From an uncultured Candidatus Saccharibacteria bacterium (GTDB lineage Bacteria > Patescibacteriota > Minisyncoccia > CAYVXU01), in NCBI GenBank assembly GCA_964454705.1, contig CAYVXU010000003.1, positions 16,180 to 51,413 of the forward strand: a stretch of DNA of 35,234 bases, read 5' to 3'. Below, one piece after another: positions 3,549 through 34,177 of this stretch. Numbering within the stretch: position 1 is the stretch's first letter; the number at the start of each line of letters is the position of its first letter. The translations under genes and the position numbers were made by a program. A model generated the notes under the pieces. It was not told the DNA's origin. It saw only the letters and a program-made list of their open reading frames with translations, and ran no database searches.

Positions 3549-3643
3549 TCGTGCAGTAAACGCTTATCTAATAAACTTACTAGTGATATTATGGCTTTTA
3601 AAAGCCGCTATTCTGCTCTTCTGGCCCTTACTTTCAAAAAATA

Positions 3644-3659
3644 GTACTATATATAGTAT
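3644..3659. promoter_or_regulatory. NrdR box (operator) upstream of nrdR-nrdJ
   Basis: gTACTATATATAGTAt contains a 14-bp perfect palindrome (3645-3658) whose core CTATATATAG fits the published NrdR-box core CwAtATaTwG. It lies about 100 nt upstream of the nrdR ATG and overlaps a possible minus-strand promoter, TTGTAG-17-TACTAT. Confidence 0.6.
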
Positions 3660-3788: not shown

Positions 3789-3899
3789 GGGCCTGCCTGC
3801 TTTTCTAGCGAATCATCATGGAGAAGTCCTTTTCGTGCCGGAACGGCAAATAAAGAAGTGAGGCTCCATGGCCGATTCGTCTGAAAAGCAGGCAGGTCT
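3789..3899 (+). ncRNA. Candidate structured RNA / conserved extended hairpin, copy A (family unknown)
   Basis: Nested pairings: P1 3792-3805/3883-3896 (14 bp), P2 3809-3814/3874-3879, P3 3817-3823/3864-3870, and an apical hairpin at 3837-3847. A second copy at 10970-11082 (-) shows compensatory changes. Confidence 0.5.
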
Positions 3900-3947
3900 A
3901 AGAGGGGGCTTGGCTATTTAAGAAGGTAGCATTTGAGGTAAAATTTG

Positions 3948-3976
3948 TTGACATGCTAAATCTTATATGATATAAG
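3948..3976 (+). promoter_or_regulatory. Sigma-70-type promoter for the 4051 gene
   Basis: TTGACA (3948-3953), a 17-nt spacer ending in TGa (extended -10), then TATAAG (3971-3976). It sits about 75 nt upstream of the GTG start at 4051. Confidence 0.45.
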
Positions 3977-4050: not shown

Positions 4051-5109
4051 GTGGCAAACAACCACCCCCACAAAGTAGTCGAGGACGTCGTAAGACGACT
4101 TCCCCAAAGACCCCAGGACGTTATCATAAAACGCTTTGGGCTTGTTGATGGTGTCCGCAGGACGCTTGAATCCATCGGCCGCGAAGAGGGCATCACCCGC
4201 GAACGGGTACGGCAAATCGAGGCGGATGGCTTCCGGCATCTGCGCGCCAAGAAGGTTGAGGACCGGCTGCGCCCTTATCTTGACCGGCTCCACAAATATA
4301 TCGCCGAACGGGGCCATGTCGTGCGAGAATCACAGATATTCCGTGATCTCGGGCATGAGTTCGAACCCCGTTTTACAGGCAACGAAGAGTACCATCCGAC
4401 TATTTATTTTTTGCTTTCATACGGCGAGCCGTTTACCCGTGTCAGTGAATCCCCTAAGTTCCATGCGGCATGGGCAATTGACCGCGGGCGGCACGAGAAG
4501 GCCCAGCTTGCGCTTGAAAAGTTAGTAAAAGATCTTGAAGCAAAGAAATACCCGCACACGGAAGAAGAACTTACCGCCTCGCTTCGTACCGTATGCACGG
4601 AGGTGTTTGGCGAGTCGGTGCCTACCGAAGCATGCCGCGCCTACATCGGCATCTCCCGCGATATCCTTAAAAGTCCCTTTGGCCATTATGGACTTCGGCA
4701 GTGGGCGGAAATCAACCCGCGCGGAGTGCGCGATAAGGCCTATCTTGTGCTGCAGCGCGCAGCGAAACCCCTTCACTTCCGGGAGGTGACGGAGGAGATC
4801 AATAAAACAGGGTTTGCAAAGAGAACGGCGCATCCGCAAACGGTGCATAATGAACTCATTAAAGATCCGCGTTTTATTTTGGTAGGCCGCGGGAAATACG
4901 CATTGCGCGACTGGGGATATGAACCGGGTACGGTACGCGACGTACTCATCCGGATTTTAAAGGATGCTCCCCGTCCTCTTACCCGTGACGAGGTTATCGC
5001 GAAAGTGCTTGAGCAGCGGTTCGTGAAGCCTAACACCGTAGTGCTCAATTTGCAGAATAAGAACTACTTTAGGAGAGATGAGGGGGGTAGGTACACCGTG
5101 CGCGTCTAA
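4051..5109 (+). CDS. DNA-binding protein: N-terminal sigma-70 region-4 HTH plus C-terminal HARE-HTH / winged-helix repeats
   Basis: LPQRPQDVIIKRFGLVDGVRRTLESIGREEGITRERVRQIEADGFRHLR is a typical sigma70_r4 segment. KPLHFREVTEEI...HNELIKDPRFILVGRGKYALRDWGY is HARE-HTH-like. GTG start. Confidence 0.75.
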   Translation: MANNHPHKVVEDVVRRLPQRPQDVIIKRFGLVDGVRRTLESIGREEGITRERVRQIEADGFRHLRAKKVEDRLRPYLDRLHKYIAERGHVVRESQIFRDLGHEFEPRFTGNEEYHPTIYFLLSYGEPFTRVSESPKFHAAWAIDRGRHEKAQLALEKLVKDLEAKKYPHTEEELTASLRTVCTEVFGESVPTEACRAYIGISRDILKSPFGHYGLRQWAEINPRGVRDKAYLVLQRAAKPLHFREVTEEINKTGFAKRTAHPQTVHNELIKDPRFILVGRGKYALRDWGYEPGTVRDVLIRILKDAPRPLTRDEVIAKVLEQRFVKPNTVVLNLQNKNYFRRDEGGRYTVRV

Positions 5110-5199
5110 TCCACATAGCCGCTTCATTGAGATTCGTCTTTCGCTCCTGAAGCTTCTGCCAAGATCAGTACCAATCTAAGTCGGATCCCGACTACCGGA

Positions 5200-6468
5200 A
5201 TGTTATTTGAACCATTCGTTGTTATTGGAGGGCTGATTTTGAAGTACTGGTGGCTTCTTGCGCCGGTGCTCCTTTTTCCGCTGGCGTGGTATTTATGGGT
5301 TTTATACGTACAAAGTATCTATGCCGTCTCCCGGGTATGGGATACCTTTGAGATCCGCATTCCTAAGGAGGTAGAAAAGAGCCCCAAAGCCATGGAGCAG
5401 GTATTTGCCGCGCTCCACGGTATTCACAGCGGGAAAAATCTTATTGAGCAGTACTGGAAAGGAGAGTTTCAGGATCACGTAAGTTTTGAAATTGTAGGCA
5501 CCGAGGGGGAAACTCATTTTGCCGTCCATGCCCCCCGCAAATACCGTCGCATCATCGAGGCACAAATCTATGCCCAGTATCCGGATGCAGAGATTTCTGA
5601 TACGGAAGACTACACGAAGCGCCTTCCTTCTGAACTTCCCGATGAGGAATATGATATGTGGGGCACTGAACTTGAACTTACCAAACCTGATGCCTATCCT
5701 ATCCGGACCTACATGGCCTTTGAAGAAACCTTGTTGGAGCGACGTATTGATCCTATTGCTTCTTTACTCGAACTCTTCAGTAGCCTCCGGAGCCGGGAAC
5801 ATATATGGATCCAGTTTCTGCTTAAGCCTGTTACGGACGAGTGGAAAAAAGAAGGGGAAGAGATTATCGCCAAGATGGTCAAACAGCAGCGGCCCTCCCC
5901 GAGGAGCTTTTTTGCACCGGTTACCGACCTTATCCGCGATGTCGGGTCAATTCTTACGGGACTCGGCGGAGGCGAAGCCGAAGAAAGAGCTCCCGGAAAG
6001 GAGACTATCTTCAGCGATCTTACCGTAGGACAGCAGAAGATCGTGGAGGCGATTGAATTCAATATTGCAAAGCTCGGTTTTGAAACACGAATCCGGATTC
6101 TCTATATCGCGCCCCGGAGTATCATCGCCCGCGCCACCATCTCGGGCATCTTTGGGGCATTCAAGCAATTCGGTTCCACCAACTTAAATGGATTTAAACC
6201 CAATAAGAAAGTGAGTACGAAGATTGACTACTTTTTTGTAAAGACCCGGGAACTCTATCGAAAGCAAAAAATCTACAAAGCCTATCGCGGAAGAAGCTTT
6301 GTGACCGCAAATCCCGGCATATTCCGCCCCGATAAACTCTTTGTGCTCAATACCGAGGAACTCGCTACGGTCTATCACTTCCCGGGGCTTGTTGCGCGCG
6401 CCCCCCTCATACCCCGCATTGAAGCCAAGAAAGCCGAGCCCCCCTCACGACTCCCGCGGGTGGAGTAA
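5200..6468 (+). CDS. Membrane protein (two N-terminal TM helices) partnered with the downstream coupling-protein-like ATPase
   Basis: 422 aa. Hydrophobic N-terminus (VVIGGLILKYWWLLAPVLLFPLAWYLWVLYV), then FEIRIPKEVEKSPKAMEQVFAALHG. It is 64 nt upstream of the ATPase on the same strand. Confidence 0.7.
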   Translation: MLFEPFVVIGGLILKYWWLLAPVLLFPLAWYLWVLYVQSIYAVSRVWDTFEIRIPKEVEKSPKAMEQVFAALHGIHSGKNLIEQYWKGEFQDHVSFEIVGTEGETHFAVHAPRKYRRIIEAQIYAQYPDAEISDTEDYTKRLPSELPDEEYDMWGTELELTKPDAYPIRTYMAFEETLLERRIDPIASLLELFSSLRSREHIWIQFLLKPVTDEWKKEGEEIIAKMVKQQRPSPRSFFAPVTDLIRDVGSILTGLGGGEAEERAPGKETIFSDLTVGQQKIVEAIEFNIAKLGFETRIRILYIAPRSIIARATISGIFGAFKQFGSTNLNGFKPNKKVSTKIDYFFVKTRELYRKQKIYKAYRGRSFVTANPGIFRPDKLFVLNTEELATVYHFPGLVARAPLIPRIEAKKAEPPSRLPRVE

Positions 6469-6532
6469 GATGTCTTATCTATTGATACGCGTACTCGCTT
6501 TCTCTCTCGCAATGCGTTAGAATATTTTTGAT

Positions 6533-8233
6533 ATGAATCCAGAACCTACCGTGCAAGCTCCATTAGTACCCCAGCAGGAAGAAATCACGGTCTTTGCAGA
6601 GACCAATTTTCGCAACCGCCGGATTCCCTTCGGCATCAAACGGCGGGACCGGCGCCAACACATGTATGTGATCGGCAAAACCGGCATGGGGAAGACCACC
6701 TTTCTTGAAAACCTGGCAGCACAGGATCTGCAGCGCGGCAACGGAGTGGGCATTGTGGACCCGCACGGCGAATTTGCTGAAAAAATGCTCGATGTCATAC
6801 CAATGTCGCGTACGAATGACGTGATTTATTTCAACCCGGCGGACCTCAATTACCCTATTGCCTTTAATGTGATGGAAAAGGTTGATCCGGAGTATCGGCA
6901 TCTCGTAGCGTCGGGTCTGGTGGGCGTTTTTAAAAAGCTCTGGGCAGAAACATGGGGCCCGCGCCTTGAATACGTGCTCCGCAACGCAATTCTCGCGCTT
7001 CTCGAATACCCCGGCTCCACGCTCCTATCCATTATGCGGATGCTTACCGATAAGGATTTCAGGAAGAAAGTAATTGCCTATATTAAAGACCCGGTCGTAA
7101 AGGCATTTTGGACCGATGAATTTCAGAAGTATCCTGACCGGTTCATGGCCGAAGCAGTCGCTCCGATTCAGAATAAGGTGGGACAATTTATCACAAGCCC
7201 CCTTATCCGCAACATCATCGGCCAGACCAAGTCAGCCGTGGATATGCGGGAGGTGATGGATCAGGGCAAGATTCTTATCATGAACCTCTCCAAAGGCAGG
7301 ATTGGAGAAGATAACTCTGCGCTCCTCGGGGCCATGCTCATCACCAAAATACAGCTTGCCGCCATGAGCCGTGTGGATGTCCCTGAATCAGAACGGAGAG
7401 ACTTTTACCTTTACGTAGACGAGTTTCAAAATTTCGCAACAGAGTCGTTTGCAACTATTCTCTCGGAGGCGAGAAAATACCGCCTCAACCTCGTGCTCGC
7501 CCATCAGTATATTACGCAGATGAGCGAGACAGTCCGTGATGCGGTGTTTGGAAACGTCGGCACGATGATATGCTTCCGGATCGGTGCCGCTGACGCTGAA
7601 TTCCTTGAAAAAGAATTTCAGCCGGAGCTTACCGCCGATGATCTGGTGAATCTTGGATTTCCAAACGTCTACCTCAAGCTGCTCATCGACGGTGTGGCTT
7701 CACGCCCGTTTAGCGCGACTACCCTCCCGCCCATCGCAAAAAGCGAGGTGAGTAACAAAGAGGTGATTATACGGGTATCCCGCGAGCGGTACGCGAGCGA
7801 CCGTGAGGAGGTAGAAGATAAAATCGCGCGCTGGAGCGGCATGGTGGAGGAGTCCGCCGAGAGGGCAGATATGCGGGGAGGCGCTTCCCTCCCGCGACGC
7901 AGTGATACCTCTGCAGCGCACGAACCCCGCGATACCGCACCCTCTGCGCCCCCGAGAAGGGGGGGAGAAGATGAGCGGCGAAGCGGACGCAGGGAGCCCC
8001 GAGGCGGCCGGCGTGAACTGCGTGACAAAGCTCCTCAAATTCACTCTGAGCCAAAGATTCTTGACGACGGCTCAAAGAAGGTTTCGCTGGCTCAAGCCCT
8101 GAAACAGACACCGGCTCCTCTGCAACCTGCGCATGACTCCGGCGGTGAAAAAAAACGCAAAGAGGTAAACCTCGAAGAGCTCCGGCAGCTGCTCACCGAT
8201 GTCACTAAAGGTGGTGAAGAGCAGAGGAGTTAG
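6533..8233 (+). CDS. VirD4/TraG/TraD-family (type IV coupling protein-like) P-loop ATPase lacking its own TM segment
   Basis: Walker A VIGKTGMGKTT and Walker B FYLYVDEFQNF, followed by ARKYRLNLVLAHQY. The C-terminal ~130 aa form an Arg/Glu/Gly-rich low-complexity tail. Confidence 0.85.
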   Translation: MNPEPTVQAPLVPQQEEITVFAETNFRNRRIPFGIKRRDRRQHMYVIGKTGMGKTTFLENLAAQDLQRGNGVGIVDPHGEFAEKMLDVIPMSRTNDVIYFNPADLNYPIAFNVMEKVDPEYRHLVASGLVGVFKKLWAETWGPRLEYVLRNAILALLEYPGSTLLSIMRMLTDKDFRKKVIAYIKDPVVKAFWTDEFQKYPDRFMAEAVAPIQNKVGQFITSPLIRNIIGQTKSAVDMREVMDQGKILIMNLSKGRIGEDNSALLGAMLITKIQLAAMSRVDVPESERRDFYLYVDEFQNFATESFATILSEARKYRLNLVLAHQYITQMSETVRDAVFGNVGTMICFRIGAADAEFLEKEFQPELTADDLVNLGFPNVYLKLLIDGVASRPFSATTLPPIAKSEVSNKEVIIRVSRERYASDREEVEDKIARWSGMVEESAERADMRGGASLPRRSDTSAAHEPRDTAPSAPPRRGGEDERRSGRREPRGGRRELRDKAPQIHSEPKILDDGSKKVSLAQALKQTPAPLQPAHDSGGEKKRKEVNLEELRQLLTDVTKGGEEQRS

Positions 8234-8295
8234 TGGCGCTGCCAGTTCAAAGTTAAAAGTGTAAAGTTACAGCAGCTATTCCAACGCTCATTTCC

Positions 8296-8394
8296 AATTT
8301 TCAATTCTCAATTTTCAATAAATTTTTAATGCTTCAATGACCCAATTGAAAATTAATGCAGTGAAAATTGGATGAAAATTGTAAATTGAAAATT
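8296..8394. repeat. Array of six TGAAAATT / AATTTTCA 8-mers in inverted arrangement
   Basis: AATTTTCA at 8296 and 8310. TGAAAATT at 8347, 8362, 8373 and 8387. The arms can pair: 8293-8303 with 8362-8372, and 8310-8319 with 8345-8354. Confidence 0.6.
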
Positions 8395-8426: not shown

Positions 8427-8483
8427 CCCCGACGCATCTTACGGTCGGGGTCCCGATCTTCAACTCAGTTGAAGCATCGGGAC
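8427..8483. terminator. Two abutting GC-rich stem-loops between convergent genes (putative bidirectional terminator)
   Basis: ccccgac/gtcgggg (8427-8433/8444-8450), then gtcccgatcttcaac/gttgaag-c-atcgggac (8450-8464/8468-8483). No clear U-run on either strand. Confidence 0.4.
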
Positions 8484-8503
8484 TAACGAAGCTAAAAGCT
8501 ATC

Positions 8504-9073
8504 TTACGTGGCTTTCTCCACCCGCTCCACATATTCGCCGGTGCGGGTATTTACTCGTACGATATCTCCCGTATCAATAAAGAGAGGTACCTGTATCGTA
8601 GCTCCCGATTCTAGTGCCACTGCCTTCGTGCCCCCCTGTGCGGTATCCCCTTTCACGCCGGGTGGCGCCTCCACCACCTTAAGATCAAGTTTGATGGGAA
8701 GCGCCACGGTAAGAATCGATCCCTCGTAAGTGACTGCCTCCAGCGCAAGGCCCGGCTTGAGGAACCGTACCGCATCACCGAGCTTTTTTTCATCGAGTTC
8801 GAAGCGCTCCTTGCTTCCCTGTGGTGAAAACACATACGTCCCACGATGATGGTAGATAAAGGTAATGGGTGAACGGACAATGTCCGCCTCTTCAAACTTT
8901 TCCGACTGAAGAAAATTTTTCTGGAAAACATTTCCGGTGCGCAGATTGCGGATTTTTGTCTGCAATACCGCCCGGCGCTGGGCTACTTTGGAGTGCGATA
9001 TCTCAAGCGCCTCATAGGGTTCGCTCTCGTACACAAAAAATGTTCCGGGCCGTAAATCGTTAATGGTAAGCAT
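8504..9073 (-). CDS. efp: Elongation factor P
   Basis: 189 aa from ATG 9073: MLTINDLRPGTFFVYESEPYEALEISHSKVAQRRAVLQTKIRNLRTGNVF...VEAPPGVKGDTAQGGTKAVALESGATIQVPLFI. This is full-length EF-P embedded in the 630-aa ORF. Confidence 0.93.
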   Translation of the reverse strand: MLTINDLRPGTFFVYESEPYEALEISHSKVAQRRAVLQTKIRNLRTGNVFQKNFLQSEKFEEADIVRSPITFIYHHRGTYVFSPQGSKERFELDEKKLGDAVRFLKPGLALEAVTYEGSILTVALPIKLDLKVVEAPPGVKGDTAQGGTKAVALESGATIQVPLFIDTGDIVRVNTRTGEYVERVEKAT

Positions 9074-10396
9074 GGACGTAACAGAAAATAATGAAAACGC
9101 ACCATTGTGCGCAACTATAGTATAGAAAAACTGCGTTCGATACGCAATATTCAAATATTCGATTATGTTTTGATCGCAGTGGTGAAATACCAACAACGCT
9201 TCCCGGTGAGGGAAGCGTTGTTGGTAGAGTTTGAGCTTGATATCAATTTTTCCGCGCAAGTCTCCCTTTATCCCTCCGGTGGGAGTGGATGTGAAGGCAG
9301 GAGACGGGGAAAGCCGGCTTTGAGGGGGAGTGGGTGAGGGAGAGACGGTGATAAGAGGTGACACCGAAGGAGCTGATCCCCTGTCGGAAGCCGCCGATGG
9401 CCTACTCAAGCGGAGTTTAGACTGGGTACGAATGAAAATCCTAATTTCTCCAGCACGGGCGTGAGCCTCCTGGAAGCGGGCAAACGCCTCTCCGTATGCT
9501 TCCTGTGCGAGATTCTTTTTCCCCTCTGCAAGTACGTCCGTCACACCGGAAAGTTCGGCTTGCGCATATAGAAGCGCCTCTGCAGTCAACGTGCCTCGCT
9601 TTGCCTCAAAGAAATTGCCCACTTCGCGTGCGGTACGTTCCGCGGCCCGAAGTTTTGCTTCGGCAATGTGTTTCCCTTGCGACTTCTCGCGCCTGGCAAC
9701 CTTGAGTGTGATGTTCGCATTCGTTTTCTGCGTTGTTTTGAGCTGGGTATGCACCTTCTCAAGGAGCGCCGTTACCGGTGTATCCCTTTCTTGTTCCTTC
9801 TCTTTAAGCTGGGCAAGCACCCGCGCATGCGCACGCAGCGACGACTCTACTTCGGCATTCTCCTCGGCGGCGCCCTCGGTACTCTCATCTTCGAGTGCTT
9901 CAATTGCCTCATTCGCGGCGGCAAGATGCGAGACAAGGTGGAATTCGATAATCACACGGGCATCGTGGTTCAGTTTCCCTTCGCTCGCAAGCGTCTCTGC
10001 TTCTTCCAACCGCCGCTGTGCTCGTTGCGTCTCCCACGAAGCTTTGCTTTTCGAAGAAATTTTTGCGACTCCCTGCACCTCTTCGTTTACCCGTACCTTT
10101 ATCGGGTAGAGCATGTCACCCGGCAGCGATCCCTCTGCGGCATACGATATGCTCGCGCCGGTAATAAGGAGTACAATAAGTGCTAATGGCATAGGTCGTA
10201 GAATGAATTGGTGGATCAACGAGAATATCCGTTGCGCAACCAAGTTTTCTCCCTCCCTGTGACGTGCAGCCATTTCACTCCTTACCGGATGGGTCTGCAT
10301 ATACGAAATAATCGCATCCCTCACTGTGGTGCGTTCGTGAAACGAGAGTCTTATAGTACGCGCCTTTTTGGCGAGATCATTTAATTCTTTTTCCAT
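9074..10396 (-). CDS. DUF5667-type single-pass membrane protein, putative anti-sigma partner of the ECF sigma; 3' end undefined (no in-frame stop before efp)
   Basis: Short cytoplasmic N-terminus, one TM (PMPLALIVLLITGASISYA), an LPGDMLYPIK motif, a coiled-coil region and a Pro/Ser-rich tail. The ATG at 10396 overlaps the sigma gene end by 20 nt. Confidence 0.6.
9119..9147 (-). promoter_or_regulatory. Putative efp promoter
   Basis: On the minus strand: TTGCGT (9147-9142), a 17-nt spacer, TATACT (9124-9119). It lies about 45 nt upstream of the efp ATG. Confidence 0.45.
9188..9226 (-). terminator. 17-bp perfect stem-loop (terminator-like) upstream of the efp promoter
   Basis: taccaacaacgcttccc / gggaagcgttgttggta with a 5-nt loop. 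On the minus strand it is followed by tttcacc. Confidence 0.5.
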
Positions 10397-10886: not shown

Positions 10887-10969
10887 AGTAATGAGACGTA
10901 AATACCCTAATAAAATTACTTCTCCGCAGGTCGAGTACTCTACCATTTCCTAGGTAGTCCAGCAAGTAT

Positions 10970-11082
10970 AAATCACCGCCTACCAAAGACGAATCGGTGT
11001 GTGGAGCCTCACTTTTATATTTGCCGTTCCGGCAAGGTAGCGGACTTCTCCACAATGATTCGCTATTGGCAGGCGGTGATTT
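10970..11082 (-). ncRNA. Candidate structured RNA / conserved extended hairpin, copy B
   Basis: P1 is 17 bp (11066-11082/10970-10986, with one G-U pair). The same internal blocks as copy A appear in the same order. It fills the gap between the receiver gene stop (11096) and the sigma gene. Confidence 0.5.
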
Positions 11083-15801: not shown

Positions 15802-15814
15802 AAACAGTAAAAAG

Positions 15815-15841
15815 AAAAACCCTCCCACCAAGAGGGTTTTT
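15815..15841. terminator. Rho-independent terminator (bidirectional shape)
   Basis: aaaaaccctc / gagggttttt form a 10-bp stem with loop ccaccaa, followed by tcttttat. Confidence 0.75.
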
Positions 15842-15948
15842 CTTTTATGTATACTGCTCTCTTGCACGCGCGCAAAGCAATTTTGCAAACCTCTTTAACG
15901 AGGCGATTTCGCCTCTTCTTCCAAGGACAATAATTCGCGACTTAGGTT

Positions 15949-24544: not shown

Positions 24545-24575
24545 GCGGCTGGAACATATATCATGTTCCAGCCGC
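24545..24575. terminator. 13-bp perfect stem-loop between convergent genes
   Basis: gcggctggaacat / atgttccagccgc with loop atatc. On the minus strand it is followed by tttcctttag. Confidence 0.55.
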
Positions 24576-26235: not shown

Positions 26236-26321
26236 ACGGCTTTCCTCCTTGGTGAATTGTCAGAGAACAGAACGTACTTTTTGTAGCACGGTTTTAGTGT
26301 CCTGAAAAGCCCCAAAAGAAA

Positions 26322-26352
26322 GCAGCCGGAGTGTGGTATCCACTCCGGCTGC
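26322..26352 (-). terminator. Rho-independent terminator after the 26381-26809 gene
   Basis: gcagccggagtg / cactccggctgc form a 12-bp stem. On the minus strand it is followed by tttcttttgggg. Confidence 0.7.
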
Positions 26353-26380
26353 GTGCATGTGTTTCTTCCGTAAGGTATCG

Positions 26381-33029: not shown

Positions 33030-33066
33030 AAGGCGGTGCTGGATAACAATAATCCGGCACCGCCTT
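33030..33066 (-). terminator. Rho-independent terminator after the 33079-33450 gene
   Basis: aaggcggtgctgga / tccggcaccgcctt (one G-U pair) with a 9-nt loop. On the minus strand it is followed by tttctgtttg. Confidence 0.7.
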
Positions 33067-34037: not shown

Positions 34038-34132
34038 AGGCTACCCTCCTTTTTCATTTTTCCGCTTGTATATGAAGGAACAAGTAAAACAGAGAATACC
34101 ATACCTACGGCGCTCTCGCAAGGCAGGAAAAG

Positions 34133-34165
34133 AAAAATACCCAGCCTTTAGGCGTAGGTATTTTT
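34133..34165 (-). terminator. Rho-independent terminator after the DUF1761 gene
   Basis: aaaaatacc / ggtattttt stem enclosing gcc-taaa-ggc. On the minus strand it is followed by a T-rich run, cttttcc. Confidence 0.65.
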
Positions 34166-34177
34166 CTCATCTCCCTT

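Follow-up and report, generated by a model that had tools for sequence, protein, structure and literature searches.

Introduction

The 6S RNA of bacteria is about 150-200 nt long and has a central bubble flanked by a long closing stem and a long terminal stem. The attC sites of integrons have conserved R''/R' boxes (RYYYAAC / GTTRRRY) at the base of the hairpin and a variable apex, and Correia elements are substrates of RNase III. Template-switch repair can likewise preserve the symmetry of a palindrome that has no function as RNA. For candidate-phyla-type (Patescibacteria-like) bacteria, only a few structured non-coding RNAs have been described, and a literature search found no relevant paper.

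Here, we describe an extended hairpin that occurs as two copies, referred to as copy A and copy B, in a DNA stretch of 35,234 nt, which we call the window. The element is a real, non-random orphan intergenic structured hairpin outside known families. We tentatively favor, short of outright belief, the reading that A and B are old paralogues of a strand-specific RNA hairpin, restricted to one lineage, that sits at operon boundaries and contains a sequence-specific docking module. Evidence of this kind, two copies from a single lineage, cannot carry a strong claim, and the function is putative.

Genomic setting

The window comes from a bacterium of the candidate-phyla type and represents ordinary chromosomal DNA, with genes for a NUDIX protein, an RND transporter, NrdR, and a class II-type ribonucleotide reductase, among others. 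Where homologues of window genes are named, they belong to MAGs of Azambacteria, Sungbacteria, Parcubacteria, and Peribacteria. Operons in the window end in perfect stems of 12-17 bp with loops of 5-7 nt, mostly without a U tract (Table 1), a style of operon-end hairpin to be considered when operons are predicted in such genomes.

The region between the two copies holds several features in their own right. A trio of genes at 4051-8233 encodes a protein with HARE-HTH and sigma-70 region 4 domains, a DUF8128 membrane protein, and a TrwB/TraD-like coupling ATPase. The trio is kept in the relatives L002, L068, and L069, usually downstream of secDF, and seems to be a chromosomal system, not a mobile element. 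We also considered a foreign island or a composite transposon for the 7 kb enclosed by the inverted copies, and rejected this reading on three counts: no compositional anomaly, no recombinase, and a gene cluster that is conserved in relatives. At 8290-8394, 3' of the ATPase gene, AATTTTCAAT / ATTGAAAATT units make up an AT-rich inverted repeat about 105 nt long. Relative L002 (48% protein identity) has, inside the same HARE-HTH-DUF8128-ATPase gene cluster, a 119-nt hairpin (5332-5450) whose arms consist of the same TTTTCAAT repeats and which shares TCAATGACCC with the repeat of the window. The palindrome may be conserved in association with this cluster. Finally, positions 8504-10396 (-) form one ORF of 630 codons with a DUF5667 anti-sigma-like domain (aa 89-200) and a complete EF-P (aa 445-625). 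The perfect 17-bp hairpin at 9188-9226 falls between the two domains with no in-frame stop, and the ORF is either a real fusion, the product of a lost stop codon, or a frame with an internal EF-P start (MLTINDL...).

Structure of the element

The first-pass annotation of this DNA had proposed an extended hairpin of about 110 nt in two copies. Both folds and the helices that they share bear this out, and the five sequence blocks listed as common to the copies are exact. As RNA, copy A folds at -63.3 kcal/mol (z -7.8; shuffle mean -35.0, with 0/200 shuffles equaling it) and copy B at -59.9 kcal/mol (z -8.5). Four helices are common to both copies, a result on which gapless-stem alignment, RNAalifold, and explicit pair counting all concur. 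P1, P2, and P3 together provide 31 bp interrupted by small internal loops, and the apical hairpin stands beyond a large internal loop (Table 1). The window contains two copies only, also when it is searched with covariance model R1.

Table 1. Positions of the hairpin copies, their parts, and neighboring signals in the window
Feature	Position	Strand	Remarks
Copy A, whole extended hairpin	3789-3899	+	111 nt; RNA fold; covariance model R1, 130 bits
Copy B, whole extended hairpin	10970-11082	-	113 nt; RNA fold; covariance model R1, 137.5 bits
P1 closing stem, 17 bp, copy A	3789-3805 with 3883-3899	+	two G-U pairs at base
P1 closing stem, 17 bp, copy B	11082-11066 with 10986-10970	-	
P2, 7 bp including one G-U, copy A	GCGAAUC 3808-3814 with GAUUCGU 3874-3880	+	5' arm identical in B
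P2, copy B	11063-11057 with 10995-10989	-	
P3, 7 bp, copy A	5' arm CAUGGAG 3817-3823 with 3864-3870	+	outer 2 bp compensated in B (UG/CA)
P3, copy B	11054-11048 with 11006-11000	-	
Large internal loop, 5' strand, copy A	3824-3835	+	invariant AAGUCC, then variable linker
Apical hairpin UGCCG-GAA-CGGCA, copy A	3836-3848	+	5-bp stem, GAA loop; identical in B
Apical hairpin, copy B	11034-11022	-	
Large internal loop, 3' strand, copy A	3849-3863	+	purine-rich AAUAaaGAAGUGAGG; all but two positions invariant
nrdR promoter, TTGACA-16-TACAAT	3718-3691	-	sequence read
Promoter of HARE-HTH/sigma-region-4 gene, sigma-70-type, TTGACA-N14-TGATATAAG	3948-3976	+	sequence read
Candidate ECF-type promoter, AAGTAA-N17-CGTCT	10894-10921	-	post hoc pattern; inferred only
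Operon-end hairpins	9188-9226, 15810-15846, 24545-24575, 26321-26353		
Operon-end hairpins, continued	33030-33066, 34131-34167, 8447-8486		

It had been proposed at first pass that the facing loop strands form tandem non-canonical G/A pairs, which we keep as a conjecture. Readings of the internal loop as a K-turn, a sarcin-ricin motif, or SRP helix 8 gave no fit on direct reading. The element is not protein-coding, as had been argued from a broken frame and a stop codon in copy B; both were confirmed, and the copies have no shared reading frame. The small ORFs within the hairpin (MEKS..., MPERQI...) were rejected as coding since they are not conserved in frame.

Conservation between the two copies

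Each of the 36 pairs is of a standard type in A as well as in B, and in 15 of them (13 in P1 and the 2 outer pairs of P3) both bases differ between the copies, which upholds the compensatory stem changes reported earlier. Such pair conservation was approached by none of 500 shuffles and by no slid register. As a measure of covariation, it is an n=2 comparison of two sequences from one population.

Column by column, conservation is bimodal. The core of A and B is 83.5% identical over 79 nt (E 2e-17 within the window), and 63/63 of its core columns are identical, comprising P2, inner P3, AAGUCC, the apical hairpin, AAAUA, AAGUGAGG, and the UA/CU and AU/CC junctions, while the remaining columns are variable. 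The 16 variable columns that are embedded in the core, namely the 5' linker, the 3' linker, the outer two P3 pairs, and two positions of the A-rich strand, are at chance level (3/16 identical), and so are the columns of P1 (6/34). The length of P1 is nevertheless fixed at 17 bp, with content that is unrelated between A and B except for a shifted GCCTGCC. This shared GCCTGCC had been recognized before; the additional stretch of about 7 bp that was then assigned to copy A does not stand, as gapless alignment gives 17 bp in both copies with the GCCTGCC offset by 6 nt. The 5' linker, with 6-7 unpaired nt, had been taken at 7/8 nt for the only variable one, and it is joined by a second on the 3' side (GC vs CAC).

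Since the identity of linkers and P1 is at chance, neutral sites are saturated, and the identity of the core therefore reflects constraint rather than recent copying. Gene conversion is dismissed, because a conversion tract would have homogenized the mid-core linker. Between the copies, P2, inner P3, and the apical stem show zero covariation; the sequence of these helices is thus suggested to matter beyond pairing alone. This points to recognition of P2, inner P3, and the apical stem at the sequence level, which could equally act on DNA.

Homology between A and B ends at the base of P1. Such an exact stop at the hairpin base is also a feature of an intergenic palindromic repeat of the REP, ERIC, Correia, or MITE kind, possibly once mobile and passively co-transcribed without a dedicated role, whose hairpin would be kept by folding of single-stranded DNA or RNA or by template-switch repair. 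The length of about 110 nt, the imperfect palindrome, and the intergenic position fit this alternative, as do the absence of the element from syntenic or equivalent sites in relatives, in line with an insertion in one lineage, and the apparent commonness of long intergenic palindromes (8290-8394 and the 119-nt hairpin of L002). It is countered by the outer part of P1, which is the least conserved portion of the element (6/34), the opposite of terminal inverted repeats bound by a transposase. There is no consistent target-site duplication, only two copies occur in 35 kb, and the window holds no transposase or RAYT-type gene. Moreover, the differences between the copies are confined to linkers and compensated pairs rather than being random. 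We regard a palindromic repeat of this kind as somewhat unlikely.

Neighborhood of copy A

Copy A sits between two divergent promoters, and that of the HARE-HTH/sigma-region-4 gene begins 48 nt after it, reading TTGACA, a 17-nt spacer containing TGA, and TATAAG. The closest relative, L001, has a matching TTGACA-N14-TGATATAA upstream of its HARE-HTH/sigma-region-4 orthologue. Since the promoter of the gene at 4051 lies downstream of copy A and is kept in L001, copy A falls outside the normal 5' UTR of that gene.

On the other side, an NrdR-box-like palindrome, AGTACTATATATAGTAT, at 3634-3650 lies between the near-consensus promoter (TTGACA-16-TACAAT) and the start of nrdR. Its position suggests an nrdR-ribonucleotide reductase operon that is probably autoregulated.

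As the earlier annotation stated, both copies are upstream of and co-oriented with genes whose products have sigma-70 region 4, a domain that we confirmed in both (4051 + and 10886 -). These are the only two sigma-region-4 genes of the window, and each has a copy upstream. The positional link is intriguing, while promoter geometry and relatives give it no backing. The cis-regulatory connection that had been implied for these genes is not supported, given that the promoter of copy A's neighbor lies 3' of the hairpin and that 0/24 homologous loci have the element.

The same observations bear on a 5'-UTR cis-regulator (riboswitch- or attenuator-like) or a small RNA gene acting in trans, either of them devoted to the sigma-region-4 genes, which was the reading of the first-pass annotation. 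Co-orientation with and proximity to these two genes speak for it, and the conserved single-stranded loops offer possible binding sites for a ligand, a protein, or a target RNA. It meets with a conserved promoter downstream of A, with the lack of any sigma-70-type promoter found just upstream of either copy, with a perfect 17-bp P1 that is unlike a switching helix, and with homologous genes in 24 loci that have no element nearby. We consider a dedicated regulator of this type quite improbable. In its 5'-UTR leader or riboswitch form it is contradicted for A by the conserved promoter at 3948-3976; for B, the promoter downstream is a putative one.

The word GGTAG recurs 27-31 nt after the hairpin end in both copies, at 3927-3931 (+) and 10943-10939 (-). 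As RNA, GGUAG can close a small hairpin of 5 bp (CUAUU/GGUAG in A, CUACC/GGUAG in B). Flank similarity beyond the hairpins, including this small 3' hairpin, is not significant (p about 0.2).

Neighborhood of copy B

Copy B begins 14 nt past the stop codon of a receiver-only response regulator, the last gene of a histidine-kinase operon, and ends 84 nt before the ATG of an ECF sigma gene (10886). By this spacing, and with a P1 of the operon-end type, B lies where a terminator of the kinase operon would be expected. Where the operon-end hairpins have a loop of 5-7 nt, copy B carries a structured module of 79 nt. A canonical U tract is absent from both copies: the tail of B, UGAUUUAUAC, is weak, and A has neither a U tract nor a co-oriented gene ending upstream.

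Between copy B and the ECF sigma gene we noticed the motif AAGTAA-N17-CGTCT, located 48 nt past the copy and 8 nt ahead of the ATG. This candidate ECF-type promoter would give the ECF sigma factor a leaderless mRNA. The wider pattern AAGTRA-N15-18-CGTCT, which was chosen post hoc and has a chance expectation of 0.13, occurs three times in the window, at 3856-3882 (+), 10987-11014 (-), and 10894-10921 (-). No such motif was seen upstream of the ECF sigma genes of relatives.

Strand bias

The given strand of copy A folds 7.2 kcal/mol better than its complement (-63.3 vs -56.1 kcal/mol), and that of copy B 6.2 kcal/mol better (-59.9 vs -53.7 kcal/mol). In both copies, the better-folding strand is the one co-oriented with the downstream genes. 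On this strand all non-Watson-Crick stem pairs are G-U, and the unpaired 3' loop strand is rich in purines and in A. The fold bias, the G-U pairs, and the purine-rich loop favor a single-stranded reading of the co-oriented strand, from few independent events.

Strand bias weighs on another alternative, in which the element acts at the DNA level upstream of the two sigma-related operons, either as a palindrome or cruciform bound by protein, with the HARE-HTH/sigma-region-4 protein and the ECF sigma as candidate binders, or as an ECF-type promoter (AAGTGA-N15/16-CGTCT) in its 3' half. Helices that are invariant in sequence beyond pairing are consistent with it, and the apical TGCCG-N3-CGGCA has the typical shape of a dimer operator. 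From the end of each copy it is 48 nt to a -35-type hexamer of the gene that follows (for B, that of a candidate promoter), each sigma-region-4 gene of the window has its upstream copy, and the post hoc AAGTRA-N15-18-CGTCT pattern is confined to A, B, and the region before the ECF sigma start. However, binding to duplex DNA needs no nested, compensated inverted repeats over 36 bp, and G-U pairs on one strand, together with a strand bias of 6-7 kcal/mol, favor a single-stranded reading. The -35-like part of the motif lacks the usual AAC, and relatives do not keep the motif before their ECF sigma genes. On balance, we think a DNA-level element unlikely.

Search for known families and homologs

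No known RNA family accounts for the element, as had been anticipated for SRP RNA, tmRNA, 6S RNA, RNase P, and others. Scanning the whole window with Rfam 15 (4227 models) at the gathering threshold gave no matches, and at E<10 the window and both copies gave only snoRNA noise and generic miRNA-precursor hairpins far below threshold.

Several candidates were tried individually. A by-eye resemblance to 5S rRNA was dropped after alignment to Escherichia coli rrfH gave z of 0.08 and -0.11 against shuffles, with no RF00001 match. SRP (4.5S) RNA was rejected for want of any SRP model match at E<10, for the presence of two copies, and for a GAA/GGAAC loop and an arrangement unlike helix 8. The 6S RNA was rejected on the length of 113 nt, the apical stem of 5 bp, and the absence of an Rfam 6S match at E<10, and integron attC on a P1 base that is variable and without R''/R' boxes, under a conserved apex. 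The element is also not a typical MITE. Its termini are the least conserved part, with outer P1 ends that are unrelated where a MITE would have conserved terminal inverted repeats, and no common direct repeat indicates a target-site duplication around A (GAGTGG on one side, TAAGAG on the other) or B (ACTAA, ATAC).

Searches for further copies covered related loci, genomes, metagenomes, mobile elements, and proteins. Covariance model R1, run with filters off on the closest loci, had 0 matches in 24 related loci of about 260 kb (6 HARE-HTH, 18 ECF sigma). In 185,579 GTDB species genomes, the pattern GAGAAGTCC..AAGTGAGGCTC had 13 matches, all of them non-hairpin chance matches in unrelated phyla. 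In JGI metagenomes, a pattern of the 5' half and loop, verified to match A and B, gave 0 matches, and a loops-only pattern gave 1, within a glycoside hydrolase gene and scoring 13 bits with R1. Four pattern scans of IMG/VR returned 0 matches or unrelated phage-gene families, and blastn against plasmids and phages returned nothing. With spurious ORFs called over other copies in mind, a six-frame peptide chimera of the core was compared with 5.8 billion protein clusters, with none found at E<10. Since the pattern scans need exact matches at about 20 positions, they exclude close homologues and leave distant ones aside.

Identical copies of B are present in the Logan contigs L018 and L019 (assemblies SRR6261452 and SRR6943130), and the same organism is represented at NCBI by a fragmentary assembly, GCA_005239765.1. 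Sampling of the lineage is poor: the HARE-HTH protein has its best homologue at 59% identity and the next at 48%, and homologues of the ECF sigma reach at most 58%. As far as these searches reach, the element appears to be a lineage-restricted orphan of one poorly sampled lineage.

Proposed mode of action

Our preferred reading, the strand-specific RNA hairpin with a docking module, builds on the observed fold, compensated stems, bimodal conservation, strand bias, and positions. From these we infer transcription, termination or processing, and protein binding as its steps. The element would be read on the strand that is co-oriented with the operon downstream of each copy. With no evident promoter and no co-oriented gene end upstream of copy A, its transcription is conjectural. 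P1, free in sequence and fixed in length, could serve as a clamp that stops or pauses transcription or protects the 3' end, or as a processing site (RNase III). The invariant distal half, consisting of P2, inner P3, the purine-rich asymmetric loop, and the GGAAC-capped hairpin, would then be the docking site of a protein. Once docked, this protein could tune the upstream transcription that passes into the sigma-factor operon, which for copy B would come from the histidine-kinase/response-regulator operon.

A bolder version, which we consider very improbable, makes the element a new, lineage-specific class of small RNA that is excised via its 17-bp stalk from transcripts of operon boundaries. 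Its bubble and GGAAC hairpin would bind the ECF sigma or the HARE-HTH/sigma-region-4 protein, and it would act as a miniature 6S-like decoy or co-regulator tied to alternative sigma factors.

Significance and comparison with known systems

If the element is a functional RNA, it would represent a rare case in which an invariant core of 63 nt lies inside a closing stem that is sequence-free and fixed in length, and it would mark the point where two sigma-factor operons are entered. As a palindromic repeat only, it would still show that operon boundaries in these small genomes can bear long hairpins of complex structure. Long hairpins at such boundaries matter for the prediction of terminators and operons in these genomes.

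Among described RNAs, 6S RNA resembles the element in its rod-like hairpin, its large asymmetric central bubble, and a thematic link with sigma factors, and some genomes hold two 6S paralogues; the element, however, has about 60% of the usual length and a stem of only 5 bp beyond the bubble. The likeness to SRP RNA consists of a similar length and the short words GUCC and GGAA, and that to 5S rRNA of a similar length and the short words GCCUG, UAGCG, AGAAGUGA, and GCCGAU.

The ERIC, Correia, and REP elements are likewise intergenic, imperfect palindromes (about 100-130 nt) that fold as RNA. In contrast to them, the ends of the present element are unconserved, there is no target duplication, the copies number two, and the interior is far more conserved. 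The operon-end hairpins of the same genome are similar in their stems, with a perfect P1 of 17 bp against 12-17 bp in theirs (9188-9226, 15810-15846, 33030-33066, and 24545-24575), and copy B follows its stop codon by 14 nt, as they do. They differ in that the "loop" of the element is a conserved structured module of 77-79 nt and that copy A follows no gene. As an analogy only, RNase III stalks, such as those of rRNA precursors and phage T7 sites, offer the same arrangement of a duplex that is kept in length and free in sequence and encloses a conserved RNA.
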